DNA of 64,000 bases from an uncultured Eubacteriales bacterium (GCA_934486705.1 CAKSQS010000005.1:18120-82119), one strand, 5' to 3'; counted from the first letter of the stretch, positions 34,906 through 53,916 are shown. Numbers and translations are program-made. Notes: generated by a model not told the origin, from the letters alone.

Positions 34906-36005
34906 ACATTAAAGCGGAAGAGAACAATGTCTCCGTCCTTCATAACATATTCCTTGCCCTCGCTCCTTACAAGTCCCTTTTCCTTCGCAACCGTCATATT
35001 GCCGCCGCATTCGTTTATAAATTCGTCAAAGCCTATTACCTCGGCGCGAATAAAGCCGCGCTCAAAGTCGGAGTGGATTTTGCCCGCCGCCTGCGGCGCT
35101 TTTGTGCCCTGCTTAATAGTCCAGGCGCGCACCTCGGGCTTGCCTGCCGTAAGGTAAGAAATAAGCCCTAAAAGGTGGTAGCACTTTTGAATCATACGGT
35201 CAAGCCCCGAGCGCTCAAGCCCCAATTCCTCAAGGAACATAACCTTTTCTTCATCCGAAAGCCCCGAAATTTCAGCCTCCAGCGCTGCGCATATCGGCAG
35301 AATTTCCGCCTTTTCGCGCTCGGCAATTTCCTTTACCGCATTGTAGTTTTTGTTTGACTCTATGCCCGAGGTAAAGTCCTCCTCGCTCATATTGCAGGCG
35401 TAAATTACGGGCTTTGCCGAAAGCAGCGCCGTGGTATCAAGCACGTTTTGCTCGGTTTCATCGTTAATTTCAACCGAGCGGGCGGGAAGCCCGTTTTCAA
35501 GGTGGGCTATAAGCCTTTTTAAGAAATCAACCTCGCCCTGAAGCGATTTATCTCCCTTAAGCGCCTTTGCGGTTTTATCAAGGCGGCGCTGCGCCATTTC
35601 AATATCCGAAAAAATCAGCTCTAAGTTTATTGTTTCAATATCGCGCGCGGGGTCAACCGAGCCCTCAACGTGAATAATGTCGTCGCTTTCAAAGCAGCGC
35701 ACAACGTGAACTATCGCGTCCACCTCGCGTATGTTGGAAAGAAACTTATTGCCGAGCCCCTCGCCCTTTGAAGCGCCCTTTACAAGCCCCGCAATATCCA
35801 CAAATTCAATAACCGCGGGGGTGAACTTGTCCGGGTTATATATCTCCGCTAATTTTTCGAGCCGCTCGTCCGGCACGCTCACCATTCCTACATTCGGCTC
35901 TATTGTGCAAAAGGGGTAATTCGCCGATTGCGCCCCCGCGTTTGTTATTGCGTTGAAAAGGGTCGATTTGCCTACGTTCGGCAGCCCTACCATTCCTAAT
36001 TTCAT
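34902..36005 (-). CDS. ychF: redox-regulated ATPase YchF
   Basis: [19 protein letters not shown], a TGS domain, and C-terminal [14 protein letters not shown]...[18 protein letters not shown]. Confidence 0.95.
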
Positions 36006-36030
36006 TTATTCCCATATCTCCTTATTTTAT
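35988..36030. repeat. attL core (43-bp direct repeat)
   Basis: TACCATTCCTAATTTCATTTATTCCCATATCTCCTTATTTTAT, identical to 45456-45498. It covers the ychF RBS and codons 1-6. Confidence 0.9.
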
Positions 36031-36059
36031 TAGTGTTCGGGGCGTTTTTATTTGCCCGA

Positions 36060-37262
36060 CTACACCATTTCTACACCATTTTGCAGAAATGAATAGCTTT
36101 CAAATTGATGAACGGCGTTTACAAAAGAATCCTCGGTCACATGCACATATCTGTCCATAGTCATTTGAAGACTTGAATGCCCCAAAAGCCTCTGTAAAAC
36201 CTTCGGCTGCATACCGCTTTCTATCGCCCGTGTTGCGTATGTATGGCGTAAAGCGTGCATACAAAAGCGCTTAATGCCTGCTTCGTCGCACAATTTGTAT
36301 AGATGTGTGTCATATGAGCTGTTTTTTGCAGGTTCGCCCGTTCTCCAATTTATAAATACAAGGTCTTTCATTTCAAGAAAAGATTTCGCCCCGGTATGCC
36401 TGTCAATAAACTCCAATGTCTGCGAAAGCGTTTCGGATGTCTTGCGAGTTTTTGCGGTCTTGTAAATATCCTTTAGAATTTCGTAAGCTTTATCGGTTAA
36501 CGGAATAGTGCGGTAGCTTTGCGGTGTTTTCGGCGGTCCTGCTCTCCAACAGCCTTGACCGTGCCTGTATTCTAAAGTTTTATTAACGGTTAAAGTACGC
36601 TTTTTCCAATTGATAGCATCCCATGTCAGACCGATCAATTCGCCCGTGCGAAGTCCCGTTTCGAGAATAAGCGAATATTGCGCATAATTGTGTGAGCGTT
36701 TTGCGGCTTCTAAAAATTTATGCTGTTCGCTTATTGTAAGATATTTAATATCGTTTACTTCCCGTACAGGTTTGGTGTACCTTACGCCGTTCATAGGGTG
36801 CTTTTCAATTATATCGTTCATCAATGCGGATTTAAGCATAGTTCCCATACAAATATAAGTTTGCCTTATTGTCGAGCCTGCGTAATCGCTGTCCATTTTG
36901 TTTAATACCAATTTGCAGTGCATAGGCTTAACATCTGATAAAAGCATTTTGCCGATAACGGACTGTATATTGAATTTATACCGTTCACGGTAATTCCTTA
37001 CGGTATTTGGGGCTAAATCACCCACAATATTATTTATCCAATATTCAAACCATTCATCAACGGTCATACTTGACGGGGCAAAAATATTGCCGTGCTTATC
37101 TGCATATTTTGAGTCCTCTAACCAGTTGCGAGCTTCCGGAAGAAGCGAAAAACATTTTTCGTGTCTTTTACCTGTTCTGTCAACAAATCTTGCGGTATAT
37201 AATCCGTCCTTTCTTTGGCAAATACCTTTTCCTATTTCTTTTCCTTTAAGGTTTTTACCCAT
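36060..37262 (-). CDS. int: tyrosine-type site-specific integrase
   Basis: ETGLRTGEL (Arg I), HALRHTYAT (H-x-x-R), GHSSLQMTMDRYVH (catalytic Tyr). The ATG at 37262 is preceded by AAAGGAG; the ORF extends to 37304. Confidence 0.92.
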   Translation of the reverse strand: MGKNLKGKEIGKGICQRKDGLYTARFVDRTGKRHEKCFSLLPEARNWLEDSKYADKHGNIFAPSSMTVDEWFEYWINNIVGDLAPNTVRNYRERYKFNIQSVIGKMLLSDVKPMHCKLVLNKMDSDYAGSTIRQTYICMGTMLKSALMNDIIEKHPMNGVRYTKPVREVNDIKYLTISEQHKFLEAAKRSHNYAQYSLILETGLRTGELIGLTWDAINWKKRTLTVNKTLEYRHGQGCWRAGPPKTPQSYRTIPLTDKAYEILKDIYKTAKTRKTSETLSQTLEFIDRHTGAKSFLEMKDLVFINWRTGEPAKNSSYDTHLYKLCDEAGIKRFCMHALRHTYATRAIESGMQPKVLQRLLGHSSLQMTMDRYVHVTEDSFVNAVHQFESYSFLQNGVEMV

Positions 37263-37370
37263 TTTAAAACTCCTTTCTCCAAACGAGAAAAAGAGCCAAT
37301 GCAACTATTATATTATAATGCATCAGCCCTGTTTTTTCAATATAAAACATATAAAATTAATATGACCGTA

Positions 37371-37577
37371 TTAAATTGTTAATTTATTGCTGATGAATTG
37401 CTCAAATTCCTTGCGTTTAACAAGCTTTTTTGTTCCTACATATAACACGAACGGACAATTCGGACTCCGCAGCATACGGTCAATGCGGTTAATACCTATA
37501 TTGCTGTATTCTGCGGCTTCTTTTACTGTCATTGTAAGCTTTATATTAAGCGGTATACCTACATTGCTTTGTTGCAT
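37371..37577 (-). CDS. xis: excisionase-family DNA-binding protein
   Basis: 68 aa. LTMTVKEAAEYSNIGINRIDRML is an HTH_17/Xis(Tn916)-like helix-turn-helix. Located immediately upstream of int. Confidence 0.75.
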   Translation of the reverse strand: MQQSNVGIPLNIKLTMTVKEAAEYSNIGINRIDRMLRSPNCPFVLYVGTKKLVKRKEFEQFISNKLTI

Positions 37578-37596
37578 TCAAACACACTCCTTTCCG

Positions 37597-38913
37597 TCAA
37601 TCTTCAAAATAATAAGCCTGGAAAACCGTACCGTCATATAAGATAAATCTGCCTGCGGTATCTTTGGGTATTTGTTCTGCCGCGGCGGTACTGTCGAGTA
37701 TAATCTGTGACAGTATGTTATCGGCTCTGCCGCAAATGCGGCAATCAATATTGTTTCGTATCTGCCCCGAAAGAACGGCGGCGTCAGGTCTTTGCGTTGC
37801 AAGTATCAGATGAATACCGAAAGCCCGCCCCTGTCGGGCTATTACAGATAGCTTACTTTCTATTAAACTTACCCGCTCTTTCTGTTCTTTTGTAAGTCCG
37901 GTTTTATCGAGTACCTCGGCAATTTCATCACAGGCAAATATACAGCGCTTCAGTTCTTTTCCTGTTTGTCGGCAGTATTCGTCTATGTTTCGGCAATTAC
38001 TTTCACGCAATAAGACTTTTCGCCGCTGCAATTCATCAGCAAGCCCGGTCAGCAGCGTTATAAGCTCGTTTTCATCAAAACACATTTTGCAGTTCTCCTG
38101 CCAGGCGGAGGGAAAATCCACTCCGCCCTTAAAATCCGCTATGCTGACCGACATATTTTTCTTTAATGCCTGCATAAGCAATAGCTTTAGCAGAACGCTT
38201 TTACCGCTGCCTGTCGAGCCGCCGAGTAAAATGTGCGGTATTTTTTTCAGATCCACCGTGACCGTTCCCAAAAGGCTTTTACCGAGCACGAGCACGGAAT
38301 TACTGCCTGCAAGATAATTGTCGTTCCACACCATACGCTTTAAAAGGGAATTATCCGCCTGAACCGCATAAAGCATAATTTCCTGTTTATCGCTGCCCTC
38401 TTTCAGATTTACTATATTCAAATTGAGCGCCGCCTCTATTTTTTGCCGTTTGTCTTCCCATTCTTTAAGCGGTATACCTACGCCGTAAAACCGATATACG
38501 GTTACCGAATTGTCTTTTTCGTCCGTTTCCTTTGAAATAAGCATAGGTATTTCTCCGGCGCTGTTTGTAAACCCGATTCGTTTTAACCCGTTTGAAACGG
38601 TTTCGCTGCCGGCAGGAGTGCCGAGCAGTATAAGCACGGCAGGTGCGACGGCAATAATCATTAGGGGAAAGAAAAGCTTTAGCAAAGCGATAAATACAGG
38701 GGAGATAAAGTCCGTCTTTTCAATATCAAAGTAACTTTTGCAGAAAATCCAAAATATTATAACAGCGGCATAAACCGCCAAAATAATATATCTCCCCGAT
38801 TTATTTTCTCTTACAAAATCATATCCGTTTTTAATACGAAGTAATAAATACCGCTTTTGCGTCTGCCTTTTCAGTCGTTCCTTATCATTATCAGTCATAG
38901 AAACCCTCCTCAC
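37597..38913 (-). CDS. FtsK/SpoIIIE-family DNA translocase (coupling-protein-like)
   Basis: N-terminal TM helices, Walker A GGSTGSGKSVLL, Walker B CIFACDEIAE, and ATQRPD. 4-nt overlap with rep. Confidence 0.85.
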   Translation of the reverse strand: MRRVSMTDNDKERLKRQTQKRYLLLRIKNGYDFVRENKSGRYIILAVYAAVIIFWIFCKSYFDIEKTDFISPVFIALLKLFFPLMIIAVAPAVLILLGTPAGSETVSNGLKRIGFTNSAGEIPMLISKETDEKDNSVTVYRFYGVGIPLKEWEDKRQKIEAALNLNIVNLKEGSDKQEIMLYAVQADNSLLKRMVWNDNYLAGSNSVLVLGKSLLGTVTVDLKKIPHILLGGSTGSGKSVLLKLLLMQALKKNMSVSIADFKGGVDFPSAWQENCKMCFDENELITLLTGLADELQRRKVLLRESNCRNIDEYCRQTGKELKRCIFACDEIAEVLDKTGLTKEQKERVSLIESKLSVIARQGRAFGIHLILATQRPDAAVLSGQIRNNIDCRICGRADNILSQIILDSTAAAEQIPKDTAGRFILYDGTVFQAYYFED

Positions 38914-39851
38914 TTGAAATAAATTTCTTCTGTCTGCCCGCCGGCTTTATAAAAGAAAACGCGGTGAATACGGCGTATAAACGCTTTCCATGTTTCGGGG
39001 TGATTGTGCCTGACATCAATATACTGTTCGTTTAAGGGCAGGTTAGAGGTTATATACACCTTTGTATAACACGCGGTGCGGTCGGAATACCGTGCCGGTA
39101 GTGTAAGCGGATATATGTCAAGATAATTAAGCATTGTTTCTATCGGTATTTGAGAATTAAATTCTTCAAAAACCAATATATCCTGCCCGTGGTACGAATC
39201 AAATCGCACACCGTTTTTGCCGTTGTAATCGGTAATTCTGCATATTTCGCTTGCAGGGTGCTTTTTATATATGCCGCTTGTTTTTCCCGTGCCAGACGCT
39301 CCGAACAGATATGTAACGGTAAGCTCTCTGTTTTCGGAACGGTAGCGCTCCGAAAGATATGCCTCGCGCAAAATATCTATATCCTTTAGTTTAAAGGCAA
39401 AAGAGGGCGTTTCGTCTATTATTTCTGTCGTTGATAAACCGTCCTTTACATTGCAAAGCAGCTTATACATTTTCGGTTCGCGCTCCTCACATTCATTCGG
39501 TATATTTCCGAATTCGTAAAAGCTGTCCTTGTGTGAGGTTTCACTCTTTTTATCGTCCGCCCATTTGCCCTCCTTGCGTATATAGTCGCGGTTTTCCTTT
39601 GCGCTGCCGAATGCCTTTTCTATGTGTGCGGTGGGAAAACGGTTTTTAACTGTTGAAAAGCGAATAGGGGATTTAGAGTAAATGAAAATATGGGTATGAA
39701 ATGTTCCTGTTGTTGCCGTTTCGTCCGCCATACAGTAATAATCCGGACAAAACAGATTTAAAATTTTGCGAATACCGTCACGGTCAAGCCCGCAGTCCTG
39801 CGGATTATTGATTGTAAGCGTCCATTTGCGCGATTGCGGATTAGAAGCCAT
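38910..39851 (-). CDS. rep: HUH-endonuclease / SF3-helicase replication-relaxase protein (CRESS-virus-type Rep)
   Basis: Motif I WTLTINNP, motif II HTHIFIY, motif III YIRKEG, Walker A GASGTGKTS, Walker B ILVFEEF, motif C YITSN. Confidence 0.8.
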   Translation of the reverse strand: MASNPQSRKWTLTINNPQDCGLDRDGIRKILNLFCPDYYCMADETATTGTFHTHIFIYSKSPIRFSTVKNRFPTAHIEKAFGSAKENRDYIRKEGKWADDKKSETSHKDSFYEFGNIPNECEEREPKMYKLLCNVKDGLSTTEIIDETPSFAFKLKDIDILREAYLSERYRSENRELTVTYLFGASGTGKTSGIYKKHPASEICRITDYNGKNGVRFDSYHGQDILVFEEFNSQIPIETMLNYLDIYPLTLPARYSDRTACYTKVYITSNLPLNEQYIDVRHNHPETWKAFIRRIHRVFFYKAGGQTEEIYFK

Positions 39852-39870
39852 ATGAAATTCCTCCTTTCAT

Positions 39871-39920
39871 TGCTACTGCTACTCATGCTTCCATAAGGGT
39901 AATACTTGCCCTTATGGAAG
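39871..39920 (-). other. putative Rep origin (nick-site stem-loop plus iterons)
   Basis: A perfect 12-bp stem (39888-39899 with 39909-39920) with a 9-nt loop. On the rep strand the loop plus the first stem base reads AAGTATTAC. The tandem hexamer TGCTACTGCTAC lies at 39871-39882. Confidence 0.6.
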
Positions 39921-40005
39921 TGCGGCGCTGCGCTGCCGCCGGGGAATATTTTTACTAAGGCAAAAATATTCTGTTTCCCTGTCGGCATTACAGCGCCGCA
40001 CAGCA

Positions 40006-40326
40006 TTATGGCTTTTTATTAACCAATGAAATACCTGTAGCCTTTGCGCTGATTTGTGTTTTTCCCTGGCTTTCGTATGCCGACACTTCAAGTCCGCTGA
40101 ATTCAACCTCCGCATAACCGTCCGGCTTTTCCATAAGCTGTTTCCCGTCAATTTTCACGCCGAGCTTTTCAAGGCTTAAATCCGGTAAAGCGACAATATA
40201 TCGGTATCCGGTAACGGTTTCCGTGCGGTGTCCGTCCTTATACTCATATGTCGGGACAATATCCACCAACAGCTTTTTTGCGCCGAGAGACGCAGGATCA
40301 ATTTTCAAATCACGAATGTTTAACAT
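40006..40326 (-). CDS. small conserved-element protein (Tn916 ORF22/23, DUF961-like by size and position)
   Basis: 106 aa, good RBS (AAAGGAGAAAC), first gene of the rep-ftsK operon. The family assignment is tentative. Confidence 0.4.
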   Translation of the reverse strand: MLNIRDLKIDPASLGAKKLLVDIVPTYEYKDGHRTETVTGYRYIVALPDLSLEKLGVKIDGKQLMEKPDGYAEVEFSGLEVSAYESQGKTQISAKATGISLVNKKP

Positions 40327-40425
40327 TTTTTGTTTCTCCTTTTTAATTTTATTCAGGTTTGGCGCGCACCCTTAACCTGATTGCATTGTATCAGATTTAG
40401 CAGGTGTGTTTTGCTTCCCCGGCGA

Positions 40426-40460
40426 AACAAAAAAAGACCGCCCTGCAAAAAGCAGGACGG
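40426..40460 (-). terminator. rho-independent terminator after the HTH regulator gene
   Basis: The minus strand reads CCGTCCTGC-ttttt-GCAGGGCGG followed by TCTTTTTTTG. The one non-Watson-Crick pair is G-U only on the minus strand. Confidence 0.7.
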
Positions 40461-40470
40461 CATACAAATT

Positions 40471-40851
40471 TTACTCGTCTATGGGGCTTCCCAACAGAGG
40501 CAATCCCTCGTCATAAAGGAAGCTGTTTGCTTGATCGATGTTCATTTTCTCGGCTATTATTTTATCCCAGCATTTTAAATAGGGGAATGCGAGACTGAAC
40601 AATTCTTTTGTTTCTTTTGAATCTAACCCTAAAGCCACACAAACGCTCATAACAATGCGGTCTGTAGGCTGATATGTACTGCCTTTATCGTTGCTGTTAC
40701 GGCATATACGGCTTACGGTAGCTCTTGTTAACATACTCTTTCTGATTAAATCAGCTTGTGTCATTTTTTTGATCTTCAGATACTTTTTAACGGAGTCTGA
40801 AAAACTGTTTACTTCTTTGTTGTAGTTGTTGTTTTGCGGGTTAATTGTCAA
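40471..40851 (-). CDS. XRE-family helix-turn-helix regulator
   Basis: KKMTQADLIRKSMLTRATVSRICRN is an HTH_XRE pattern. TTG start. Confidence 0.65.
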   Translation of the reverse strand: MTINPQNNNYNKEVNSFSDSVKKYLKIKKMTQADLIRKSMLTRATVSRICRNSNDKGSTYQPTDRIVMSVCVALGLDSKETKELFSLAFPYLKCWDKIIAEKMNIDQANSFLYDEGLPLLGSPIDE

Positions 40852-40859
40852 TAAGACAA

Positions 40860-41500
40860 CCCCGATTTTCGGTTAACCGATTATTCTGCACTCGGAGGCG
40901 GAGACAAGTTTAAAATATGCCCAAATGCTATGGATACAGAAATACAGTGTATTAACCATGGCACCACCTCCTTCTTAAAAAGGGTGAAAAGTTTATAGGT
41001 TGACTTTCCGCCTCCGGGAGCAAAAACAACAAGTTCTCTCTTGGTAGTGAAAAGAGTACAACAATAATGCTGTACTCTTCCACCTTTTTCTCTTATGGAC
41101 TCACGTATGAGTTTTAACCGTCAGGGCAGACTGCCCCTATACACGGGTTGTAAATGGTCATTTGATATTGCCGTCAGTCCCGATCACGCTAAAGCATGTC
41201 CGACAGCAAGACAGGCGGGGTTTTCCTTGTTCTGCGGGTTGTGCGGAACGATGGATTTCGCCTGGGCCTGTCTCGGCTACTTTCCATTACTAGGCACTAA
41301 AAAACATAAACGGACTCATTACTCAAACCAAAATCATTGCGGACACGCCGCATTATTTCACATCAAACCTTGCACCCTTAGCCTATAACTCCCGAAGTTC
41401 GCACTTTGTCCGTCCTAAAGGCGTCGGGTAGGTCGAAAGCGGTGAGCAAAAAGTGTGGTTCACAGTCTTTTCATTTGCGGTACTAACCCACCGCAAGCAA
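40860..41500 (+). ncRNA. candidate structured non-coding RNA, unclassified
   Basis: A >1.1 kb gap has no credible ORF. Many helices are present, and two of them contain G-U pairs only if transcribed from the plus strand (40891-40902 with 41007-41018; 41229-41235 with 41243-41249). Strand and ends are uncertain. Confidence 0.3.
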
Positions 41501-41740
41501 GAAACTGTGCAAATTTTACCAATTTCATTCTAACTCTGTTTAACAGTAATGTCAAGCATAAATTTTGAAAAAACTTGTTTACTAAGAATTAAATGGATTT
41601 AGGAGAAATGTAGTGATATAAATCAAGTATAAAGTGCAATTCATTTTGTGCTTTTGAAAGCGAAACGCATAAAAATGACTTTGTTGTTCTGCCGAAATTA
41701 ACAAATATCTGTTCCGAGGTGCTTCTTAGGGCTAAAACAC

Positions 41741-41768
41741 TTTACATTTTTCCTTATTATGGTATAAT
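41741..41768 (+). promoter_or_regulatory. sigma-A type promoter for the cargo genes
   Basis: TTTACA (41741-41746), 16-nt spacer, extended -10 TGGTATAAT (41760-41768). Confidence 0.5.
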
Positions 41769-41982
41769 AAACTCATGATTTATTTTTTGAAAAACAGGTT
41801 TCGATTTATATACAACATAATGCCTATCGTGTTATAATTATAATCGGTGATGGGGTTGTGCTGATATGCTGTTTTTAAGAATCCCAGTTAAAAAGTGATG
41901 AATTTTAACAGGTATTTGTCGATTTGAGAATAAGAGTACTATTTATTATTTTGCAACATAATGGCATTAGTAAAAATAAAAA

Positions 41983-44145
41983 ATGAGGGGAAAAAGCGCA
42001 ATGGATTTTAAGGAAAATATTGATGAAAATTTAAATTGGGAAAAAGTTAATAAAAAAGATGCTCATTTCTCAAAAAATATAACAGATAAATCCGTTTTAA
42101 ATTTTTCCTGTACAGAATGTTCATGGTGTAAATCTAAGCTGATTAAGACACAAAACAAAAACGAATATGAGATGTTTAAAAAATTAATCAAAACTGAAAT
42201 TTTAAACATTCCTTTTGATTTTGCTGCCAAAAGCGAAGAAGCTGCATTTAATAAATTCAAAAAAATGGGATTTCCAATATATAAAAATGAATTACACCTT
42301 CCATTGAGATGTAATTACAGTTATGAAAAACTGTTTGCTCCAAAAAACAATTATAGAATTAAAGGTTCATATCATTTTGAAATAAGCACACAATCAATTG
42401 ATTATTATCCATACTTTAAGGTATGCCCTTGCTGTGGAAATGATGTTTATTCAGCAAATGAAGAGATTGAGAAACTTGAGAAAATGGAATATGATAAACT
42501 AATAACCAAATATAAATCGAAAGCTGAAAAATTCAATTCCAAAATTGATTTATCTAAATTTGATATTTGTGGCTATTTAGGGACTTTAGTTGAATTATAT
42601 AAGGAATCATATATTCTTGAAAAACAAATTAAGAGTTTAATTATTGAAAAACATTCCTGTCGAAAAGAAAGCCTCATAGTTAAGACGGCATATATTAATG
42701 CTAACAGAGATAAGAATATTTCTTGTCAATACATTGCTGCCGAGAAAAAGTTAAATGAGCTTCAAGCTGAAAAGGCAAATGGGATTTTATTATCTTCAAT
42801 TGAAAAAAATGCTGCTTGGGAAACATTTCTAGCTAATGACGATGAATGGAATATTTTGACAGTCAAAACGCCGATTGAGCCAGTTAAACCCGAAGAACCA
42901 ACTGCTCCTGAAAAACCAATAAAAGTACAGCCTGCCCCTATAAATTTTGATATGACGCGATTAATCGAGCCTACAGAACCTAATTATTTGCAAGGTAATT
43001 TTTTTAATAAGAGGAGGATTACAAAACAAAACACAGAATTAAAACTCAATTATGAGAGGGCAATAGAAGATTATAAAACTTCATGTCAAGAATATGAAAA
43101 AGCATTAGCTGAATACAAAAAGTTATGTAATGATGCTGATAGGAATTATCGGGTTTCATTAGAAAAATACAATCAAGATCAGATTACTTATACAAATAAT
43201 TATAATGAATTTCTTAACAAAACAAATTTATACTTGATTGAAAAAGCAAAGTATGAGGAGGAAATGAACAATTACAATACAAAATTAAAGAAAATTGAAA
43301 TTCTATCACAGCGCATAGACGATAAAAAGAAAGAAATCTATGAAAAGGCATTACAGAATAAAATCAAACGGATATCTAATGAAGAGGCTGAATTGATTAA
43401 AATTTTAAATGATTTTGATGCAGAATTAAGGGCAAAACTTGAAAAAGAAACATCAGAATTGCCGAAAAAAATTGCTAACGATACTATGGTGAAGTTTTTA
43501 GATGTTGAGACGGCAAATTTGATAAAAGATTTGTTTGAAATTTATGCCGCTATCGATGAATTAAAATCACTTAATGTAATATATCCAAAATACACTGAAT
43601 TTTCTACATTGTGTACCTTGTATGAATATTTTTTGTCGGGGCGAACAAATGAACTTGCTGGACCTCAGGGCGCTTACAATTTATATGAAAGTGAAAAAAG
43701 AGCAGATAATATCATTAATAAATTAGATATAATCAATTACAAATTGGATGACATTTTAAATGAATTAAATGAAGTAAAAAACAACCAAGTTCTTTTATAC
43801 TCAACAATGAAAGAGATAAAAAAGGGAGTGGATAAGCTTAATAGTAATATTTCAAATATGGTTGTTGAAATGGAAGAAATTGGGGATGATTTAATATCTC
43901 ATAAAGATTCTGTAAATTTAAATAGTGATTCGGTTTCTTCAAAATCGAAGCTGCCAACTTCGATAACTTCGCTTTCCTCATATTTGGCGTTGTCATCTTT
44001 TATGGATTCACAAAGGCAATCATTTAATTCTACTGTTAAACAGGCCAGTGTAATAAAAAGAGGAATAGCAGGTGGATTGATAGCCGGACCTGCAGGTGCT
44101 ATTGTTGGTGCACTGAGTGCAGTTGACAAAAATAGAAGAAATTAA
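41983..44145 (+). CDS. large coiled-coil protein with an N-terminal Cys-cluster domain and a C-terminal glycine-zipper membrane helix; unknown function
   Basis: 720-aa ORF in a very AT-rich stretch. It contains CTECSWC...CPCCG, a Pro-rich linker PIEPVKPEEPTAPEKPIKVQPAP, long Lys/Glu/Asn-rich helical regions, and C-terminal GIAGGLIAGPAGAIVGALSAV. The start may be the ATG at 42001 (MDFKE). Confidence 0.7.
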   Translation: MRGKSAMDFKENIDENLNWEKVNKKDAHFSKNITDKSVLNFSCTECSWCKSKLIKTQNKNEYEMFKKLIKTEILNIPFDFAAKSEEAAFNKFKKMGFPIYKNELHLPLRCNYSYEKLFAPKNNYRIKGSYHFEISTQSIDYYPYFKVCPCCGNDVYSANEEIEKLEKMEYDKLITKYKSKAEKFNSKIDLSKFDICGYLGTLVELYKESYILEKQIKSLIIEKHSCRKESLIVKTAYINANRDKNISCQYIAAEKKLNELQAEKANGILLSSIEKNAAWETFLANDDEWNILTVKTPIEPVKPEEPTAPEKPIKVQPAPINFDMTRLIEPTEPNYLQGNFFNKRRITKQNTELKLNYERAIEDYKTSCQEYEKALAEYKKLCNDADRNYRVSLEKYNQDQITYTNNYNEFLNKTNLYLIEKAKYEEEMNNYNTKLKKIEILSQRIDDKKKEIYEKALQNKIKRISNEEAELIKILNDFDAELRAKLEKETSELPKKIANDTMVKFLDVETANLIKDLFEIYAAIDELKSLNVIYPKYTEFSTLCTLYEYFLSGRTNELAGPQGAYNLYESEKRADNIINKLDIINYKLDDILNELNEVKNNQVLLYSTMKEIKKGVDKLNSNISNMVVEMEEIGDDLISHKDSVNLNSDSVSSKSKLPTSITSLSSYLALSSFMDSQRQSFNSTVKQASVIKRGIAGGLIAGPAGAIVGALSAVDKNRRN

Positions 44146-44178
44146 ATAATAAAACTTAAGTGTAGAGGAAGAGAAAAA

Positions 44179-44826
44179 ATGTATCCAATAAATAATATTC
44201 AGGGAATATATAAACAGGAAAGCGAATTAGAAGGTAATCATGTAATAATTTTACTTCTTGTAAAGCCATCTGATACAGGTGCAGATGATTATATAAAAAA
44301 GTTCAATTATTTACACTATCGTTCTAAACGGTACTGCTCGATATATTTGCTTGGATACTCACAGGATTTTCAAGGAAAATACATAGATGCCATTTCTGTA
44401 CAAGGTATAGACCATCAAAAATGGCAATATAGCGATCAATGTTTTTCTGACGCATGCGATGAATTACAAAACCGCTTGTCAAACTGGCACTATTCCGGTG
44501 AGCCAGAAATGATTATTTTGCAGAATAGTTCGAATTCGGATTCAAAGAAATGTTTGAATTTTACAAATTATAATTACATAGATATCAACTATGGTATTGA
44601 AAAACAATACATCGATAGCTTCCCGCGCTTTATGGAAAGACTAATTCAGTCTTGTAAAAATGAAGTCACAGCGGTTGAAGCAATTACTTCAGCCAATAGA
44701 AAGCGCATAAGTCCAAGAAAAGTTATGGAATATGCGATAGAAGAATGCCCTCGCTTACCGCGCCCTGTCAGAAGTATTCTTAAAGACAAATTGTTTTATA
44801 AATCATGTAAAAACAAAGTGGCATAA
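44179..44826 (+). CDS. hypothetical protein, partner of the 720-aa cargo protein
   Basis: 215-aa ORF 33 nt downstream with RBS GAGGAAGAG and the same AT-rich composition. No motif recognised. Confidence 0.65.
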   Translation: MYPINNIQGIYKQESELEGNHVIILLLVKPSDTGADDYIKKFNYLHYRSKRYCSIYLLGYSQDFQGKYIDAISVQGIDHQKWQYSDQCFSDACDELQNRLSNWHYSGEPEMIILQNSSNSDSKKCLNFTNYNYIDINYGIEKQYIDSFPRFMERLIQSCKNEVTAVEAITSANRKRISPRKVMEYAIEECPRLPRPVRSILKDKLFYKSCKNKVA

Positions 44827-45206
44827 TTTGACTTATAATTTGCAATCAAGCAGTAATGCTTGAAATAAAAACTAAGGAGGAACCTTTATGAAAGTGTTAT
44901 CATTAGTAATCTTGGTGACTCTCTTGGTGTTGTAGTGTGCGAAAGCCATTACAAAAATCAAGGGAGTCCCGACCCCTGGTTGGGTAGAGATATTGATAAG
45001 CATCCTCGCCGTAGTAAAATATGGCTTGAAGTTGCTGTCCTTGACTCTCTCTCAATTTTAAGGGTAGGTCTGAACGGCCTAGGGGCACTGCTTTTCAGCG
45101 GTGTCCTAAATTAATGCATTATGAATCTAATATAGCGATGTGGCAAAAAATAATTTTGCCAAGAGCACAAGCGGTAGGGTAGCATTTGCAATTAAATAAA
45201 CTATTT

Positions 45207-45250
45207 AAAAAGCGAGAATTTACTAAAAGTTGTAGATTCTCGCTTTTTAT
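45207..45250. terminator. bidirectional rho-independent terminator after the cargo
   Basis: AAAAGCGAGAAT pairs with ATTCTCGCTTTT (45207-45219 with 45236-45248), A-run before and T-run after. Confidence 0.7.
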
Positions 45251-45455
45251 TACTGATTCAATAAATATTGCTGCATAGGCTCTTTTTTCGTTTTTAAGAT
45301 AAACCTTACTTCACCATTTACTACACCATTTTGGTGTGGACTTGCATAGAGAAATATAAAGATGTATTAAAGTGATTTTTTTAAAACCCGCGGTACTATC
45401 GGGTTTTATGAGATTTTAAGGAGTTATAGGGACATATGAAACGCGGTTCGGCAAT
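45243..45455. mobile_element. relic of a related element end (degenerate att-flank plus integrase 3' end fragment)
   Basis: 45310-45333 (TCACCATTTACTACACCATTTTGG) matches the integrase stop region at 36060-36084. CGTTTTTA and CTTTTTATTACTGATTC resemble the attL-proximal flank. Confidence 0.4.
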
Positions 45456-45498
45456 TACCATTCCTAATTTCATTTATTCCCATATCTCCTTATTTTAT
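45456..45498. repeat. attR core (43-bp direct repeat)
   Basis: Identical to 35988-36030. Confidence 0.9.
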
Positions 45499-45680
45499 AA
45501 GTATTTGATTATTGTAATATATACAGCTTTTCTGAAAATACGAAAAGAGCTGATACGACTTTTATATTATAGCGCATCAGCTCTTCTTTTTCAATATAAA
45601 TAAGTTTAATTTGTTTTTGCGGCGGGGAATAAATAAAAAAACGGGCGAATGCGGAACGGGTTCTGATTTTTTGAGGTATT
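45499..45680. mobile_element. relic of a second related element (int-xis intergenic homolog, integrase deleted)
   Basis: 45541-45610 (CGAAAAGAGCTGATACGACTTTTATATTATAGCGCATCAGCTCTTCTTTTTCAATATAAA) aligns with 37283-37345 between int and xis. Confidence 0.4.
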
Positions 45681-46230: not shown

Positions 46231-47637
46231 TTAAAGGGCAATATCCTCGGCGGGGGTGGTGTTTATAAAATCGGGCAGAGTGTTTTTAACGCGCTCATAA
46301 TACCCCTGCTCCCAAAAAAGACATTTTGCGGGGTCAATGCCCAATTTATTGTTTGTAAGCGCCAAAGCGATAGCGCGGCAGCCGCCGAGACAGTGCTCAA
46401 AGTATTTGCATTTCCCGCATTTATCGTTCTTTTCGCGGAGCGTGCCGACCGTCAGGCAGACTTCATCTAAATATTTGCCGCCGCAGAGCAGCTCGCGCAG
46501 CGGCTCTTTTTTTAGATTGCCCGGAATATCGTTATGCTGCTCATAATAGCCCGATTGCTGGTGGCAGGGGAAAACGTTTCCGTTTGCCGCTACGGCTATC
46601 ATTCCGCGGTTTCCGCGGCACACGGGCAGGCTGTCGCGGTATTCGCCGCTGCATGCGCCCACCGCCGCAAGGGAGTAATGCCGTGTTACGGGGTACAGCG
46701 TGCCGAACTGCCACACGGTAAGTACCATTTTGTGTTTTCCCGCGGCATAAGCTTTCCAAAGCTTTAAGGCTTCTTCGTAATATTCATTAAGCGATAATGC
46801 GGCGTTGCCCGCGTTCTGCACCCAGCGCGGCGCCTCTGTTGTGCGTATTATGCGCATTTCGGAAACACCCATACTGTCAAGTAACTCGGCGGTTTTAAGC
46901 ATTGTGTCAAGGTTTTTTCGGTTCACGTTCGTTTGCACCTTAACGGGAAAACCGTTTTCTATGCAAAGCTTTATTGCATTAAGCGCGTTTTCCTCAGCGC
47001 CTTCGCGGTTGCGCATCCAGTCGTGAAAGCCCAGCCCGTCAAAGGAAATTTTCATAAGCGGAACGCAGCCGATTTTTTTAAGCCTTTCAAGAGCGGCGGC
47101 GGTTATGTAATAGCCGTTTGTGTTAATTTCCTCAACAAACATATTACGTTTATAAATCCCCTCAATAATATCAAAGAAATTTTTGTGCAGCATAGGCTCG
47201 CCGCCGGTTATTGTAAAGGCGTTTATTCCGCAGTCATACGCCTCGTCAAGCAGCTTTTCCGCCTCTTCTGCCGTCCACTCGCTTTGCAGCGGCGCATTAT
47301 CCGCCGCGTTAAAGCAGTGAAGACAGTTGTAATTGCACTTGCCGGTTATCATCCAGTTCATAGCGGGAAAATAGCGGTTATCGCAAAGCCGCGGTCTGCT
47401 CCACGGTTCTGTCTCCTCGCCATCTTCCGCTATGCGTATAAAGCCGTTTGCAAGAAATTTTTCGGCAAGCGGGCTGTCCGCAGCGCTCGGTAATTCTGTT
47501 TTTCCGTCGCAAGCGGATAAAAAGTCAAATTCTTCGCCCTTAAGCCCGCACGCGTTGCGCTCGCCCTTTATGTAATAGGCAAAGGGTACAAGCCGCCATG
47601 AGCGCAGGGCAATATTCGGATTTAATACATAATGCAT
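46231..47637 (-). CDS. radical SAM/SPASM-domain peptide maturase
   Basis: CX3CX2C motif GKCNYNCLHCF, GGEPML, and C-terminal auxiliary-cluster Cys (CSGEY...CRGN...FPCH...CGKCKYFEHCLGGCRA). Confidence 0.9.
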   Translation of the reverse strand: MHYVLNPNIALRSWRLVPFAYYIKGERNACGLKGEEFDFLSACDGKTELPSAADSPLAEKFLANGFIRIAEDGEETEPWSRPRLCDNRYFPAMNWMITGKCNYNCLHCFNAADNAPLQSEWTAEEAEKLLDEAYDCGINAFTITGGEPMLHKNFFDIIEGIYKRNMFVEEINTNGYYITAAALERLKKIGCVPLMKISFDGLGFHDWMRNREGAEENALNAIKLCIENGFPVKVQTNVNRKNLDTMLKTAELLDSMGVSEMRIIRTTEAPRWVQNAGNAALSLNEYYEEALKLWKAYAAGKHKMVLTVWQFGTLYPVTRHYSLAAVGACSGEYRDSLPVCRGNRGMIAVAANGNVFPCHQQSGYYEQHNDIPGNLKKEPLRELLCGGKYLDEVCLTVGTLREKNDKCGKCKYFEHCLGGCRAIALALTNNKLGIDPAKCLFWEQGYYERVKNTLPDFINTTPAEDIAL

Positions 47638-47651
47638 AGCTGTAACCTTAC

Positions 47652-47675
47652 AGGCCGCCGAAAAAACGGCAGCCT
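47652..47675 (-). promoter_or_regulatory. stem-loop between the last precursor gene and the maturase gene
   Basis: The minus strand reads AGGCUGCCG-UUUUUU-CGGCGGCCU, 9 bp with one U-G that pairs only on the minus strand. No U-tract follows. Confidence 0.5.
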
Positions 47676-47705
47676 GCTTTCCTTTATGAGTATTGGGCGA
47701 TAGGC

Positions 47706-48086
47706 TTACTTTTTACTGTTTTCATAGTTCTCACAGTACATTATTGCACCTACCGATTTAGAATAATAGCAGCTCGGGCAATAGGAGTTGCGCAGGCAGG
47801 TTTCGTCCCTGTTGCCGTTTTTATGGTCGCGCCCGCACTGAGTACATTCAAATTTATCGCAGGAGTGGCGCGAGGTAACTATAAGCTTGCCCTCTATATT
47901 GTAGCATCCGCCGCCCGATACGTTATCAAGCTCTTCATCGGAAAGCTCGCCCGCCTTCGGGTGCAAAAGCTCAAAATATGCCTTTGCGCCGTCGAGTGTC
48001 ATTTCTTCGCCGTTTTCTTTTGCAAGACACAGCAATTCTTCAGGAGTTTTTGCAGCTTTCGCTTTTGAAATAAGTTCACTGTTCAT
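47706..48086 (-). CDS. Nif11-type leader / Cys-rich core precursor peptide 1 (most divergent core)
   Basis: The leader MNSELISKAKAAKTPEELLCLAKENGEEM...ELSDEELDNVSGGG is followed by a core with 8 Cys. Confidence 0.85.
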   Translation of the reverse strand: MNSELISKAKAAKTPEELLCLAKENGEEMTLDGAKAYFELLHPKAGELSDEELDNVSGGGCYNIEGKLIVTSRHSCDKFECTQCGRDHKNGNRDETCLRNSYCPSCYYSKSVGAIMYCENYENSKK

Positions 48087-48088
48087 TT

Positions 48089-48502
48089 TTATAATTTCCT
48101 CCCGTATTCGGTATTGGGGTTATTGCAAAGCCACAGGCCTCTTTCATACGAGCAATACTTGCAGTATTCGCACCAGGTTACATTTCCGCAATTTCTGCAT
48201 ACCCGGCGGTACGGGAAAACCGAGGTTTCAACCGTATCCTTTGCGCAGCCGTTTTTGCACTGCCAATCCCAGCAGCGGAATCGCGTGGTAACAACAAGTC
48301 TGCCGCTGTTGTAGCAGTTGCCGCCCGATACATTGTCAAGCTCTTCGTCTGCAATTTCGCCCGTCTTCGGGTGCAAAAGCTCAAAATATGCCTTTGCGCT
48401 CTCTTCGGTCATTTCTTCGCCGTTAGTCTTTGCCATTTCAAGTAATTCTTCGGGGGTTTCAGCCGTTTTCGCCTTGGCAATCAGTTCTTTGTTTATTTCC
48501 AT
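48089..48502 (-). CDS. Nif11-type leader / Cys-rich core precursor peptide 2
   Basis: The leader ends DEELDNVSGG. The core has 10 Cys and ends CEYCKYCSYERGLWLCNNP. Confidence 0.85.
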   Translation of the reverse strand: MEINKELIAKAKTAETPEELLEMAKTNGEEMTEESAKAYFELLHPKTGEIADEELDNVSGGNCYNSGRLVVTTRFRCWDWQCKNGCAKDTVETSVFPYRRVCRNCGNVTWCEYCKYCSYERGLWLCNNPNTEYGRKL

Positions 48503-48521
48503 TTTAATGCACTCCGTTCGT

Positions 48522-48917
48522 CTAATTTTTTCGGTGATTGCTTTTGTTGCAAAGCCACAATCCTTTTTCGTATGTGCAGTATTTGCAGTTGTTACATACT
48601 GTCAAGCGGCCGCATTTGCATATCCCGACACTGACTGCATTTTTATTGATTTGAGTGCCGCATTTTTTACACTCAAAACCCGTACAGCCGTGACCGACGG
48701 TCACAATTTCTCTGCCGTCATCTGCATGACATCCGCCGCCCGAAACGTTTTCAAGCTCTTCATCGGCAATTTTGCCGGTCTTCGGGTGCAAAAGTTCAAA
48801 ATATGCTTTTGCGCTCTCCTCGGTCATTTCCTCGCCGTTTTCCTTTGCAAGACATAGCAGCTCTTCGGGGGTTTTTGCTTTCTTTGCTTTTGATATAAGC
48901 TCTTTGTTCATTTCCAT
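48522..48917 (-). CDS. Nif11-type leader / Cys-rich core precursor peptide 3
   Basis: MEMNKELISKAKKAKTPEELL...ENVSGGG, then core CHADDGREIVTV...CNNCKYCTYEKGLWLCN. Start set at the ATG at 48917, preceded by AAGGGTGA; the ORF extends to 48926. Confidence 0.85.
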   Translation of the reverse strand: MEMNKELISKAKKAKTPEELLCLAKENGEEMTEESAKAYFELLHPKTGKIADEELENVSGGGCHADDGREIVTVGHGCTGFECKKCGTQINKNAVSVGICKCGRLTVCNNCKYCTYEKGLWLCNKSNHRKN

Positions 48918-48935
48918 AATTATCACCCTTTTATA

Positions 48936-49328
48936 TTATTTTTTCATTCTGGCGGGGTTGTTGCAGAGCCACAGACCCTTTTCATATGTGCAGTAGTGGC
49001 AGGTGTTGCAAAACGCGCCGATTCCGCATGTATTGCAGTATACCATCGCACCGTATATATCGCATTGCGAGCCATCGGTTTTGCAGCGCCATTCGTCGCA
49101 GTAATTCATTACGGAAACAACAAGTCTGTCGCCCTTGTAACATCCGCCGCCCGCTACATTGTCAAGCTCTTCGTCTGCAATTTCGCCCGTCTTCGGGTGT
49201 AAAAGCTCAAAATATGCCTTTGCGCTCTCCTCGGTTATTTCTTCGCCGTTTTCTTTTGCAAGACATAGCAGTTCTTCGGGAGTTTTTGCCTGTTTCGCCT
49301 TTGCTATAAGTTCGTTATTCAGTTGCAT
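48936..49328 (-). CDS. Nif11-type leader / Cys-rich core precursor peptide 4
   Basis: The true start is MQLNNELIAKAK at 49328. The track ORF (to 49502) runs in-frame into the 3' end of the next gene. The core is CYKGDRLVVS...CNTCHYCTYEKGLWLCNNP. Confidence 0.85.
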   Translation of the reverse strand: MQLNNELIAKAKQAKTPEELLCLAKENGEEITEESAKAYFELLHPKTGEIADEELDNVAGGGCYKGDRLVVSVMNYCDEWRCKTDGSQCDIYGAMVYCNTCGIGAFCNTCHYCTYEKGLWLCNNPARMKK

Positions 49329-49347
49329 ATCAATGCGCTCCGTTCGT

Positions 49348-49743
49348 CTAATTTTTTCGGTGATTTTCTTTGTTGCAAAGCCACAGTCCTTTTTCGTATG
49401 TGCAGTATTTGCAGTTATTACATACTGCCATGCAGCCGCATTTGCATAACACAATACCGACCGAATTGATAATATTTTTGCAGCCGCATTTTTTACACTC
49501 AAAACCCGTACAACCGTGACCGACGGTCACAATTTCTCTGCCGTCGTCTGTATGACATCCGCCGCCCGATACATTGTTAAGCTCGTCATCGGTAATTTTG
49601 CCTGTTTTCGGGTGTAATAGCTCAAAATAAGCCTTTGCGCTCTCCTCGGTCATTTCTTCGCCGTTTTCCTTTGCAAGACATAGCAGCTCTTCGGGAGTTT
49701 TTGCAAGCTTAGCCTTTTCAAGTATTTCATTTGTGTTTTTCAT
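49348..49743 (-). CDS. Nif11-type leader / Cys-rich core precursor peptide 5
   Basis: The leader ends DDELNNVSGGG. The core has 12 Cys: CHTDDGREIVTV...CNNCKYCTYEKGLWLCN. Confidence 0.85.
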   Translation of the reverse strand: MKNTNEILEKAKLAKTPEELLCLAKENGEEMTEESAKAYFELLHPKTGKITDDELNNVSGGGCHTDDGREIVTVGHGCTGFECKKCGCKNIINSVGIVLCKCGCMAVCNNCKYCTYEKGLWLCNKENHRKN

Positions 49744-49754
49744 AATTTAACTCC

Positions 49755-50138
49755 TTAACGCCCAAAATTGCAAAGCCACAGACCTTTTTCATAAGAGCAA
49801 TGCTGACAGTTTGTGCAGTTGGCTAATCTGCCGCACTCCTTGCAGCAAGCACTTTTTACGGCGTTTACTATGCACTTACCGCCGCATTTACTGCAGGCAT
49901 AATTATTGCATATGCAAAATACCGAAACGATTTTTCTTCCGTCGTTTTTGTTGCACCCGCCCGCTACATTGTCAAGCTCATCATCGGCAATCTCGCCTGT
50001 TTTCGGGTGTAAAAGCTCAAAATATGCCTTTGCACTGTCAAGGGTAATTTCCTCATCGTTTTCCTTGGCAAGACATAGCAGTTCCTCGGGGGTTTTTGCA
50101 TTTTTTGCTTTCGCAAGCAGTTCTTTGTTTATTTCCAT
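49755..50138 (-). CDS. Nif11-type leader / Cys-rich core precursor peptide 6
   Basis: MEINKELLAKAK...DDELDNVAGG. The core has 13 Cys and ends CTNCQHCSYEKGLWLCNFGR. The ORF extends to 50147. Confidence 0.85.
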   Translation of the reverse strand: MEINKELLAKAKNAKTPEELLCLAKENDEEITLDSAKAYFELLHPKTGEIADDELDNVAGGCNKNDGRKIVSVFCICNNYACSKCGGKCIVNAVKSACCKECGRLANCTNCQHCSYEKGLWLCNFGR

Positions 50139-50156
50139 AATTATCACCCTATTATA

Positions 50157-50534: not shown

Positions 50535-50561
50535 TTTAAAACTCTCCGTTCGCATTATTTT

Positions 50562-50939: not shown

Positions 50940-50952
50940 TTTAAAAATCCTC

Positions 50953-51629: not shown

Positions 51630-51717
51630 GGTTACCCTCTCTTTCCGTTTTGTTTTTCCCTTTCACTTATTTATACGAACGAATTTGCAAAAGGGCTTAT
51701 TTTTTTAAAAATATTTT

Positions 51718-53901: not shown

Positions 53902-53916
53902 TAAGTCTTTCCCCCT

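Follow-up and report, generated by a model that had tools for sequence, protein, structure and literature searches.

A predicted circovirus-type origin and a pCRESS2-group Rep in an integrated mobile element of an uncultured Eubacteriales bacterium

A stretch of 64,000 nucleotides from an uncultured Eubacteriales bacterium (GCA_934486705.1, CAKSQS010000005.1:18120-82119), referred to below as the window, contains an integrated element of about 9.5 kb. The rep gene of the element (positions 38910-39851, minus strand) encodes a 313-residue initiator protein composed of an HUH endonuclease and a predicted superfamily 3 (SF3) helicase, and is preceded on the same strand by a hairpin that displays the nonanucleotide of circovirus origins. 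The locus is very likely the origin and initiator cassette of a pCRESS2-class integrated mobile element, which is inserted at the 5' end of the gene ychF in a gut host of the Oscillospirales/Ruminococcaceae type and functions by the rolling-circle mechanism proposed below. [quoted passage not shown]

The predicted nick-site hairpin and its conservation

The hairpin occupies positions 39888-39920 of the minus strand, and 36 nt separate its end from the ATG codon of rep. The stem arms CTTCCATAAGGG (39920-39909) and CCCTTATGGAAG (39899-39888) form 12 perfect base pairs, which enclose the nine-nucleotide loop CAAGTATTA. The nonanucleotide AAGTATTAC (39907-39899, minus strand) is read from the loop and the first base of the stem. 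It is identical to the cognate site of porcine circovirus 2 (PCV2), AAGTATT/AC, and the cognate site of faba bean necrotic yellows virus (FBNYV) is TAGTATT/AC (PMC7826260). The position of the cut in AAGTATT/AC places the predicted nick between T39901 and A39900 of the minus strand, and the predicted nick substrates of Rep are CAAGTATTACC and GGGCAAGTATTACCC. The region thus has the makeup of a circovirus-type origin, a stem-loop with the nonanucleotide NAGTATTAC in its loop, upstream of rep and on the same strand. The ribosome-binding site of rep, AAGGAGG, was read from the sequence at positions 39860-39866 (minus strand). An earlier note on this DNA had called the motifs of Rep, the stem-loop, the nonanucleotide, and a tandem hexamer on the minus strand, all of which are at the coordinates given here.

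The predicted folding energy of a 101-nt region containing the hairpin is -20.2 kcal/mol (z = -4.07), and none of 200 shuffled sequences folds as well. The octamer AGTATTAC alone is weak evidence for an origin, because it has six copies in the window compared to 1.28 expected. A covariance model of the hairpin and its loop identifies a single site in the window. For comparison, 80 loci were fetched out of 354 loci with rep in species-representative genomes, and these 80 loci and the window constitute the 81 sources analyzed. Each of the 80 related loci likewise has one match to the model and no second one, just upstream of rep and on the same strand (81 hits, with that of the window, in 910 kb searched on both strands). 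The earlier note had named a lack of hairpin conservation as a result that would speak against it; the hairpin is present in 80 of 80 related loci, 24-50 nt upstream of rep. In about 74 of them, the best of the perfect hairpins in the 300 nt that precede rep is positioned 28-50 nt before the start codon and has nAGTATTAC at the junction of the loop with the 3' arm of the stem. The octamer AGTATTAC is in the loop of 76 of the 80 hairpins, and most of the relatives carry TAGTATTAC, the nanovirus cognate.

The sequence of the stem changes from locus to locus, while its pairing is maintained. Complementary bases occupy 91.6% of the stem cells, compared to 70.0% in shuffles, in an alignment that was fitted to the covariance model and is thereby biased towards the structure. 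In the same alignment, ten of the 12 stem pairs have changed on both sides, and there are 156 compensatory cells compared to 36.4 expected; none of 500 shuffles reaches the observed count. The covariation score is 0.545, which again no shuffle out of 500 reaches, whereas it is 0.133 after shuffling and at most 0.144 when the pairing partner is slid. The pairs were counted on the model-fitted alignment because a MAFFT alignment of the origins misplaced insertions and deletions in the 3' arm. The raw list of stems, with no model involved, gives the same pattern: the stems CTTCCATAAGGG, CTACCATAAGAGGT, GCTCGCATAGGT, GCTCCCCAGGGGT, and GTCCCACGG differ from each other, and each of them has a perfect complement. 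The folding, conservation, and covariation support the assignment of the hairpin as a predicted nick site of the circovirus type.

Chance does not explain the hairpin. The alternative that it is a random palindrome, a terminator, or an operator that is not nicked might draw on its intergenic position and on the five further copies of AGTATTAC that occur in the window by chance. However, the stem is not followed by a run of T residues, the loop is kept while the stem covaries, the structure occurs once per element across the 80 loci, and the site is identical to the experimentally cut site of circoviruses. The probability of this alternative is close to nil.

Rep is a member of the pCRESS2 group

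The HUH motifs I, II, and III of Rep, WTLTINNP (residues 10-17), HTHIFIY (52-58), and YIRKEG (90-95), are arranged in this order and are invariant or nearly so across 13 homologues. Tyr90 of the third motif is the predicted catalytic residue. The helicase part contains the Walker A motif GASGTGKTS (184-192), the Walker B motif ILVFEEF (225-231), and motif C ITSN (267-270); the SF3 signatures GASGTGKT, VFEEF, and ITSN are conserved among these homologues. In total, 3893 homologous proteins were found at E ≤ 1e-5. Residues 8-94 match the Pfam family Viral_Rep (PF02407) with a score of 44.7 bits (cut-off 26, E = 1.7e-11). The Pfam scan of Rep gave no match to Rep_1, Rep_2, or Rep_trans, the families of plasmid initiators with which the earlier note had considered that Rep might cluster instead.

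A search of the PDB with a profile of Rep and 12 homologues ranks the full-length Rep of PCV2 (7LAR) first (E = 4e-15), with the nuclease and helicase domains matched separately. Profile residues 176-303 align to the helicase domain of 7LAR (27.9 bits, i-E = 1e-5). The next structures in the ranking are other Reps from circoviruses, geminiviruses, and nanoviruses. In the alignment with 7LAR, the segments WTLTINNP, HTHIF, and YIRKEG are opposite FTLNN, HLQGF, and YCSKEG of PCV2, the last of which is the motif with the catalytic tyrosine. The segment TAHIEKAFG of Rep aligns with ARCHIEKAKG of PCV2, a single-stranded DNA (ssDNA)-bridging motif that contacts the nonanucleotide (PMC7826260). The pattern RFP[TI]AHIEKA is retained in 59 of 78 related loci. 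The Viral_Rep score and the top rank of 7LAR bear out the classification of the protein as a Rep of the type found in CRESS-DNA viruses, whose single-stranded genomes are circular and encode Rep.

The Rep groups pCRESS1-9 were defined by Kazlauskas, Varsani, Koonin and Krupovic (Kazlauskas et al. 2019, PMC6668415). The Rep from the window was compared by BLASTP with sequences from Dataset 2 of that study, and its group assignment is by best hit. Four published pCRESS2 Reps share 52-60% identity with it over the full length and a further two share 39-46%, whereas the identity is 30-31% to two pCRESS3 Reps, including that of plasmid p4M, and 27% to two pCRESS1 Reps. The kinship with pCRESS plasmid Reps, which the earlier note had proposed to examine, therefore lies with pCRESS2. 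The pCRESS2 Reps are distinguished by a Walker B motif with glutamate replacing aspartate, an asparagine in motif C, and a motif III that lacks YLxH (PMC6668415). Rep from the window has the Glu-Glu pair in Walker B (VFEEF), the asparagine in motif C (ITSN), and YIRKEG instead of YLxH. Because of these hallmark residues and the identity to published pCRESS2 Reps, we assign the protein, on the evidence of its sequence, to the HUH and SF3 Reps of the CRESS-virus/pCRESS type as a member of pCRESS2.

Candidate iterons and a long hairpin flank the predicted nick site

A tandem repeat of the unit GTAGCA (GTAGCAGTAGCA) is positioned between the nick hairpin and rep (39871-39882, minus strand) and is a candidate binding site of Rep. 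The earlier note had likened this hexamer to circoviral iterons, and the comparison of loci agrees with the call. An exact tandem repeat with a unit of 5-8 nt is present within 36 nt on the 3' side of the hairpin in 66 of the 81 loci, compared to 3.0% of 36-nt stretches drawn at random from these loci. The commonest unit is GTAGCA or TGTAGCA. The two copies vary jointly across the loci and include TGTCGCA, TGTGTCA, TGTATCG, and GGTAGCG, each repeated twice. The paired variation supports the candidate iterons as specificity-determining binding sites of Rep, for which such a pattern is expected.

A minority of loci deviate in both the loop and the repeats. Loci L035, L059, and L064 (and L060) have the loops AAGCATTG, ACCATTG, or GAGTACTAC and iterons with the units ATCGCA in three copies or TGTATCG in two; the ATCGCA triplet accompanies the loop AAGCATTG or ACCATTG in three loci. 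The pairing of deviant loops with deviant iterons suggests switches in the specificity of Rep and origin. Among the loci with a loop other than AGTATTAC, there is no clear matching change in the DNA-bridging motif of Rep.

On its 5' side, the nick hairpin is abutted by a long imperfect hairpin of about 81 nt (39921-40001, minus strand), which begins 5 nt past the stop codon of the gene orf106. The 179-nt origin region has a predicted folding energy of -48.3 kcal/mol (z = -9.04). Of 50 non-redundant loci, all 50 have a long hairpin of this kind (median z = -6.25), with a sequence that varies by locus. It is unlike a terminator, because it lacks a run of T residues. In rolling-circle plasmids, the single-strand origin is located in the last stretch that is displaced when synthesis starts at the nick. 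The long hairpin is positioned in this last-displaced stretch, and may therefore, by analogy, be a single-strand origin; a site for an accessory protein is another candidate function.

The layout resembles that of the PCV2 and FBNYV origins in the stem-loop with the nonanucleotide in its loop, in the fold and DNA-bridging motif of Rep, and in the tandem repeats that lie, on the same strand, between the hairpin and rep. The hexamers of porcine circoviruses are tandem repeats located between the origin hairpin and rep. In contrast to the viral origins, the iterons have a different sequence, the additional long hairpin is present on the 5' side of the nick hairpin, and the replicon is a 9.5-kb double-stranded bacterial integrated element. 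No capsid-like gene was found in the element by searches of Pfam and PHROGs. Because of its size of 9.5 kb, its integration in the chromosome, and the lack of a capsid-like gene, the element is not a CRESS-DNA virus.

Borders and conserved core of the integrated element

The element extends over positions ~36038-45505 and is integrated in the chromosome between two 50-bp direct repeats, attL (35988-36037) and attR (45456-45505), which are identical at 48 of 50 positions. The 26-nt core of the repeat has exactly two copies in the window, compared to 0.00 expected. The left repeat contains the first 18 nt of ychF (TIGR00092, E = 1e-148) together with its ribosome-binding site, and the insertion is therefore at the 5' end of this gene. 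Four genomes of uncultured Ruminococcaceae/Eubacteriales contain near-identical elements, which are inserted at this site of ychF as well.

The gene next to attL encodes a tyrosine integrase (36060-37304, minus strand; likely true start ATG 37262), which matches the Pfam families Phage_integrase (E = 6e-30) and Phage_int_SAM_3. It is followed by a gene for a Tn916-type excisionase (37371-37577, minus strand; Pfam Tn916-Xis, E = 7e-32). The third gene, immediately downstream of rep, encodes an FtsK/SpoIIIE-family ATPase (37597-38898, minus strand; 433 residues from the ATG codon), which is a candidate TcpA-like coupling protein. It matches Pfam FtsK_SpoIIIE with 54.7 bits, TrwB_AAD_bind weakly, and the FtsK/SpoIIIE-like PHROG with E = 2e-54. 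Two N-terminal hydrophobic stretches, at residues ~42-58 and ~70-98 of the 438-residue open reading frame (ORF) that starts at GTG 38913, were identified by eye from the translation. The protein thus combines an FtsK/SpoIIIE domain with N-terminal hydrophobic segments, as is characteristic of TcpA-type proteins. The integrative element with an FtsK-like translocase that the earlier note had described is substantiated by the Pfam assignments of these genes and by the att repeats.

The order of the genes around the origin is constant. The ftsK-like gene is downstream of rep in all 76 loci that are long enough to show the region, and in 74 of 74 loci orf106 is encoded on the strand of rep, within 400 nt upstream of it. 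Homologues of the excisionase are present in 33 of 73 loci and those of the integrase in 39 of 65. Because the order is constant while int and xis vary, the core of the element can be defined as orf106-ori-rep-ftsK, combined with an exchangeable recombination module.

The protein encoded by orf106 (40006-40326, minus strand; 106 residues) is conserved, with 380 homologues, and has no match to a Pfam family. [quoted passage not shown] The model hints that orf106 might be an ssDNA-binding protein with an oligonucleotide-binding (OB) fold. The identification of orf106 as an inovirus "RstB-like" protein was dropped, since there is no similarity (hhalign probability 0.3%).

The element has the components of an IME: an integrase, an excisionase, att sites, Rep as a candidate relaxase, and an FtsK-like protein, with no type IV secretion system (T4SS) found in the scanned ORFs. 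Specifically, no mating-pore genes were detected among the ORFs of the element or the larger ORFs scanned in its flanks. A T4SS on the left side (1-33 kb) was ruled out, as the ORFs scanned there are housekeeping genes. A helper integrative and conjugative element (ICE) or prophage on the right side (46-62 kb) was also ruled out; the region contains a gene for a radical-SAM/SPASM enzyme, two ABC transporters, a sigma factor, and a SpoIIE-domain protein.

Relation to described pCRESS plasmids and IMEs

Outside pCRESS7 and pCRESS9, 97.5% of the Reps are chromosomal and mostly belong to site-specifically integrated elements (PMC6668415). Site-specific integration is common to the elements of pCRESS1-3, -5, and -8, as are FtsK-like ATPases and SSB proteins (PMC6668415, Supplementary Note 1). 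The tyrosine integrase, att direct repeats, and FtsK-like ATPase described here are features of this family. With the pCRESS2 plasmids, such as RumCAG-E1, CloVir-E1, and RosInu-E1, the element shares these three features, the Clostridia host, and a Rep of the same predicted domain composition and hallmark residues. It differs from them in its cargo and in its integration site, which is the 5' end of ychF, whereas tRNA genes, rpsI, and other targets are listed for the published elements.

Coluzzi 2017 (PMC5357655) and Guedon 2017 (PMC5704250) independently described IMEs in which a PF02407 putative relaxase is invariably associated with a coupling protein, TcpA. The IMEs of this Rel_PF02407 and TcpA type, for example IME_SiniSF1_ebfC, resemble the element in their int and xis genes, PF02407 Rep-like protein, FtsK-related coupling protein, and absence of a T4SS. 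However, IME_SiniSF1_ebfC is a member of pCRESS1 (as StrIni-E1, located within YbaB/ebfC), the group in which the Reps are 27% identical to the one described here. No origin of transfer (oriT) is defined for the Rel_PF02407 class in either of the two papers (PMC5357655, PMC5704250).

The earlier note had regarded the combination of a virus-type initiator with an FtsK-like translocase as uncommon. This does not hold, because the combination of Rep, FtsK/TcpA, and integrase is the published norm and is widespread (PMC6668415, PMC5357655, PMC5704250), as the numbers of homologues and loci given above also indicate. The note was right that the element bears on the link between plasmids and ssDNA viruses, but this link is an already published thesis. 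The nonanucleotide is not mentioned in Kazlauskas et al. 2019 or its supplements (PMC6668415), and a literature search, which cannot prove novelty, returned no paper that links AGTATTAC or the nonanucleotide to pCRESS or IME elements. The anatomy of the origin, with its long hairpin, nick hairpin, and iterons, may be an undescribed detail of these elements.

Proposed mechanism of replication and transfer

The sequences show the identities of the genes, the att repeats, the constant order orf106-ori-rep-ftsK, and the conservation and covariation of the hairpin, nonanucleotide, and iterons; we infer the position of the nick, the replication and transfer of the element, and what orf106 and the long hairpin do. 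The integrase and excisionase would excise the element as a double-stranded circle by recombination of the 50-bp att repeat. Rep would then bind the tandem GTAGCA iterons beside the hairpin, which would be extruded or melted. The HUH domain, with its HTH (His-Thr-His) metal site and Tyr90 of YIRKEG, is predicted to cut AAGTATT/AC in the loop and to remain on the 5' end. From the free 3'-OH, synthesis would proceed by the rolling-circle mode, with the SF3 helicase domain opening the duplex. The displaced strand could have two fates, both of which probably occur. [quoted passage not shown] Rep would close the circle by re-cutting and re-joining at the regenerated hairpin.

The dual role in replication and transfer is proposed by likeness to the MobT relaxases of Tn916 and ICEBs1. 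In these elements, a rolling-circle initiator acts as both relaxase and replication initiator and is encoded beside an FtsK-like coupling protein and a Tn916-type Xis. However, the initiator of Tn916 and ICEBs1 belongs to the unrelated Rep_trans family, and the elements encode their own T4SS.

Several observations weigh against the proposed mechanism. The Pfam searches called for in the earlier note place the nuclease domain above the Viral_Rep cut-off, but the match to the SF3 family RNA_helicase, at 18.5 bits, is under the cut-off of 21.5. In NCBIfam, the FtsK-like ATPase has only sub-threshold, weak, and generic matches to FtsK, EssC, TraD, and TraB. The bias of the model-fitted alignment favors the covariation. 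No helper conjugative element is evident in the window. The searchable literature contains no experiment on nicking, replication, or transfer for any pCRESS2 element. Finally, the only free plasmid with a Rep homologue among 72,556 PLSDB records is p4M; autonomous replication may be brief or absent, because almost no free plasmids carry this Rep.

The element could be an integrated rolling-circle plasmid in which Rep and the hairpin solely copy the excised circle and the FtsK-like ATPase functions in segregation or resolution. Kazlauskas et al. name such elements integrated plasmids and the ATPase a DNA segregation ATPase (PMC6668415), the free plasmid p4M carries this rep-ftsK pair as well, and the long hairpin is placed where rolling-circle plasmids have their single-strand origin. 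Against a role in replication only stand the single record in PLSDB, the N-terminal membrane segments by which the ATPase resembles coupling proteins, and the constant linkage of rep with FtsK/TcpA, seen here in 76 of 76 loci, on the ground of which the group of Guedon classed these proteins as relaxases. We consider this explanation unlikely.

Conversely, Rep could be a dedicated non-canonical relaxase and the hairpin an oriT, with no autonomous replication beyond the synthesis linked to transfer. The PF02407 proteins of IMEs are classed as putative relaxases and always occur with TcpA (PMC5357655, PMC5704250), and the element encodes int and xis itself and is kept in the chromosome. Nevertheless, the same family of Reps and the same hairpin drive the replication of eukaryotic CRESS viruses, and the cassette is also present in inoviruses and p4M, for which no integrase is annotated. 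Furthermore, Rep retains a predicted SF3 helicase domain of the sort that replicative initiators typically have, and the MobT relaxases perform both jobs. A function limited to transfer is thus rather improbable, and the mechanism with both fates of the displaced strand is preferred.

The genes of the element also invite comparison with autonomous transfer of double-stranded DNA, in which the FtsK-like protein alone would be a TraB-like pore and Rep would merely amplify the circle. The actinomycete integrative and conjugative elements, such as pSAM2, have the gene set rep-ftsK-xis-int, which is the same as here. The weak NCBIfam match of the ATPase to plasmid TraB (18.8 bits) and the actinobacterial origin of the pCRESS3 relatives point in the same direction. 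However, TraB-type transfer is known only from mycelial actinomycetes, the 433-residue protein has no recognizable C-terminal DNA-recognition domain, and the TraB score is far under the cut-off of 800 bits. Transfer of this kind is very unlikely for the element, and passage of a displaced single strand remains the favored route.

Related origins in a free plasmid and in filamentous phages

The plasmid p4M of Bifidobacterium pseudocatenulatum (pCRESS3, NC_003527.1) has the hairpin GTGGGCGG-CATAGTGTTAC-CCGCCCAC at positions 2730-2775, followed by GTACCAGTACCA with two copies of GTACCA, about 30 nt upstream of repA. A pCRESS3-type plasmid thus has the same layout of the origin. As in the element, an FtsK gene adjoins the Rep gene; in p4M it is located immediately upstream. 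The nonanucleotide of p4M, TAGTGTTAC, differs in one base, and p4M is a free 4.5-kb plasmid of an actinobacterial host with no annotated integrase and with a Rep that is 31% identical.

Six complete circular Inoviridae genomes from rodent feces, listed in INPHARED, encode HUH and SF3 Reps that are 44-45% identical to the Rep described here. The two examined, both named "bajarodino virus" (PQ006165.1 and PQ006124.1), have a hairpin with CTAGTATTAC upstream of rep. They differ from the element in having Zot and RstB-like genes and no annotated gene for an FtsK-like protein or an integrase, and they are classified as filamentous phages. Since Inoviridae genomes carry a pCRESS2-like Rep and a TAGTATTAC hairpin, filamentous phages use the same cassette of origin and rep. 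Loci from IMG/VR with 34-47% Rep identity also have TAGTATTAC hairpins, followed in one of them (L095) by two copies of TGTTACA.

The inovirus genomes raise the alternative that the element is a degenerate or satellite filamentous prophage, in which the cassette would produce ssDNA for inovirus-like particles. Against this, the Pfam and PHROG searches identified no Zot/pI ATPase or coat-like genes in the element; the FtsK-like gene, common to all 76 loci that show the region, is there instead. The prophage alternative is extremely unlikely, and we retain the assignment to a pCRESS2-class mobile element.

Regulator, cargo, and flanking regions

Upstream of orf106, the element encodes a regulator of the Cro/CI helix-turn-helix type (40471-40851, minus strand), with weak matches to HTH_26 and HTH_3 below the curated cut-offs of Pfam and a match to a PHROG of transcriptional repressors. 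A terminator-like site (40461-40437) follows the gene.

The right part of the element (41983-44826, plus strand) contains variable cargo with a low content of guanine and cytosine (GC), in which two ORFs encode proteins of 720 and 215 residues. The GC fraction of the cargo is 0.28-0.35, compared to 0.39-0.44 in the backbone (36000-41000) and 0.45-0.53 over the greater part of the flanking chromosome. The searches of Pfam, PADLOC, and NCBIfam returned no family-level match for the cargo ORFs, and the last ~35 residues of the 720-residue protein weakly match two PHROGs of unknown function. This protein has charged heptad-like segments and a glycine-rich hydrophobic C-terminus. In the three near-identical elements whose loci reach far enough upstream (L002-L004) and in a metagenomic Logan contig of 9352 nt (L084), the backbone is common up to position ~41570, and beyond it these sister elements have unrelated cargo. 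The Logan contig was also considered as an excised circle, as it starts and ends in the att core with a 17-nt overlap. It is uninformative on circularity, because the overlap could equally well have arisen from a break in the assembly at the identical repeat of 43 nt.

Two further repeats were observed in the region. A 58-nt sequence with 83% identity between its copies is present in the promoter region of the integrase gene (37289-37346) and 38 nt outside attR (45543-45600); it could be what is left of a related element that was once inserted in tandem, or else an arm-type site of the recombinase. An exact direct repeat of 17 nt, TTAAGCGGTATACCTAC, located in xis (37546-37562) and in the ftsK-like gene (38465-38481), is longer than expected by chance in 13.5 kb. 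The low-GC stretch from 45506 to ~46200, outside attR, contains two small ORFs. Further to the right, the minus strand of positions 46231-56106 encodes the radical-SAM/SPASM enzyme, about seven ORFs of ~125-190 residues, a sigma-70 family factor, and the two ABC transporters, one of which has a C39 peptidase domain. Judged by these gene types, the region looks like a cluster for the maturation and export of a peptide, either a ribosomally synthesized and post-translationally modified peptide or a bacteriocin.

Implications for the pCRESS2 family

The element itself adds little to what has been published on the family and on its link to ssDNA viruses. The addition made here concerns the cis side: the circovirus/nanovirus cut site known from experiments, the covarying stem, and the paired iterons are conserved in essentially all pCRESS2 loci examined, and the same features are present in p4M and in inoviruses. 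The site is a precise substrate on which nicking, replication, or relaxase activity of these Reps can be tested. The comparison of the sequences also lends support to a joint passage of the origin and Rep from plasmids to viruses.

It is possible, although we hold it only tentatively, that the whole cassette of the nAGTATT/AC nick hairpin, iterons, and HUH-SF3 Rep has been inherited as a unit and serves as a generator of ssDNA for three routes of export. In the IMEs of Clostridia, the cassette would function as oriT and relaxase, and the ssDNA would leave through the mating pore of a helper by means of the TcpA-like ATPase; in inoviruses of Gram-positive bacteria, it would enter filamentous virions; and in eukaryotic CRESS-DNA viruses, icosahedral capsids. 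If the cassette was inherited in this way, a circovirus-type Rep would be a true conjugative relaxase, and the nonanucleotide origin of the viruses would predate the viruses themselves.

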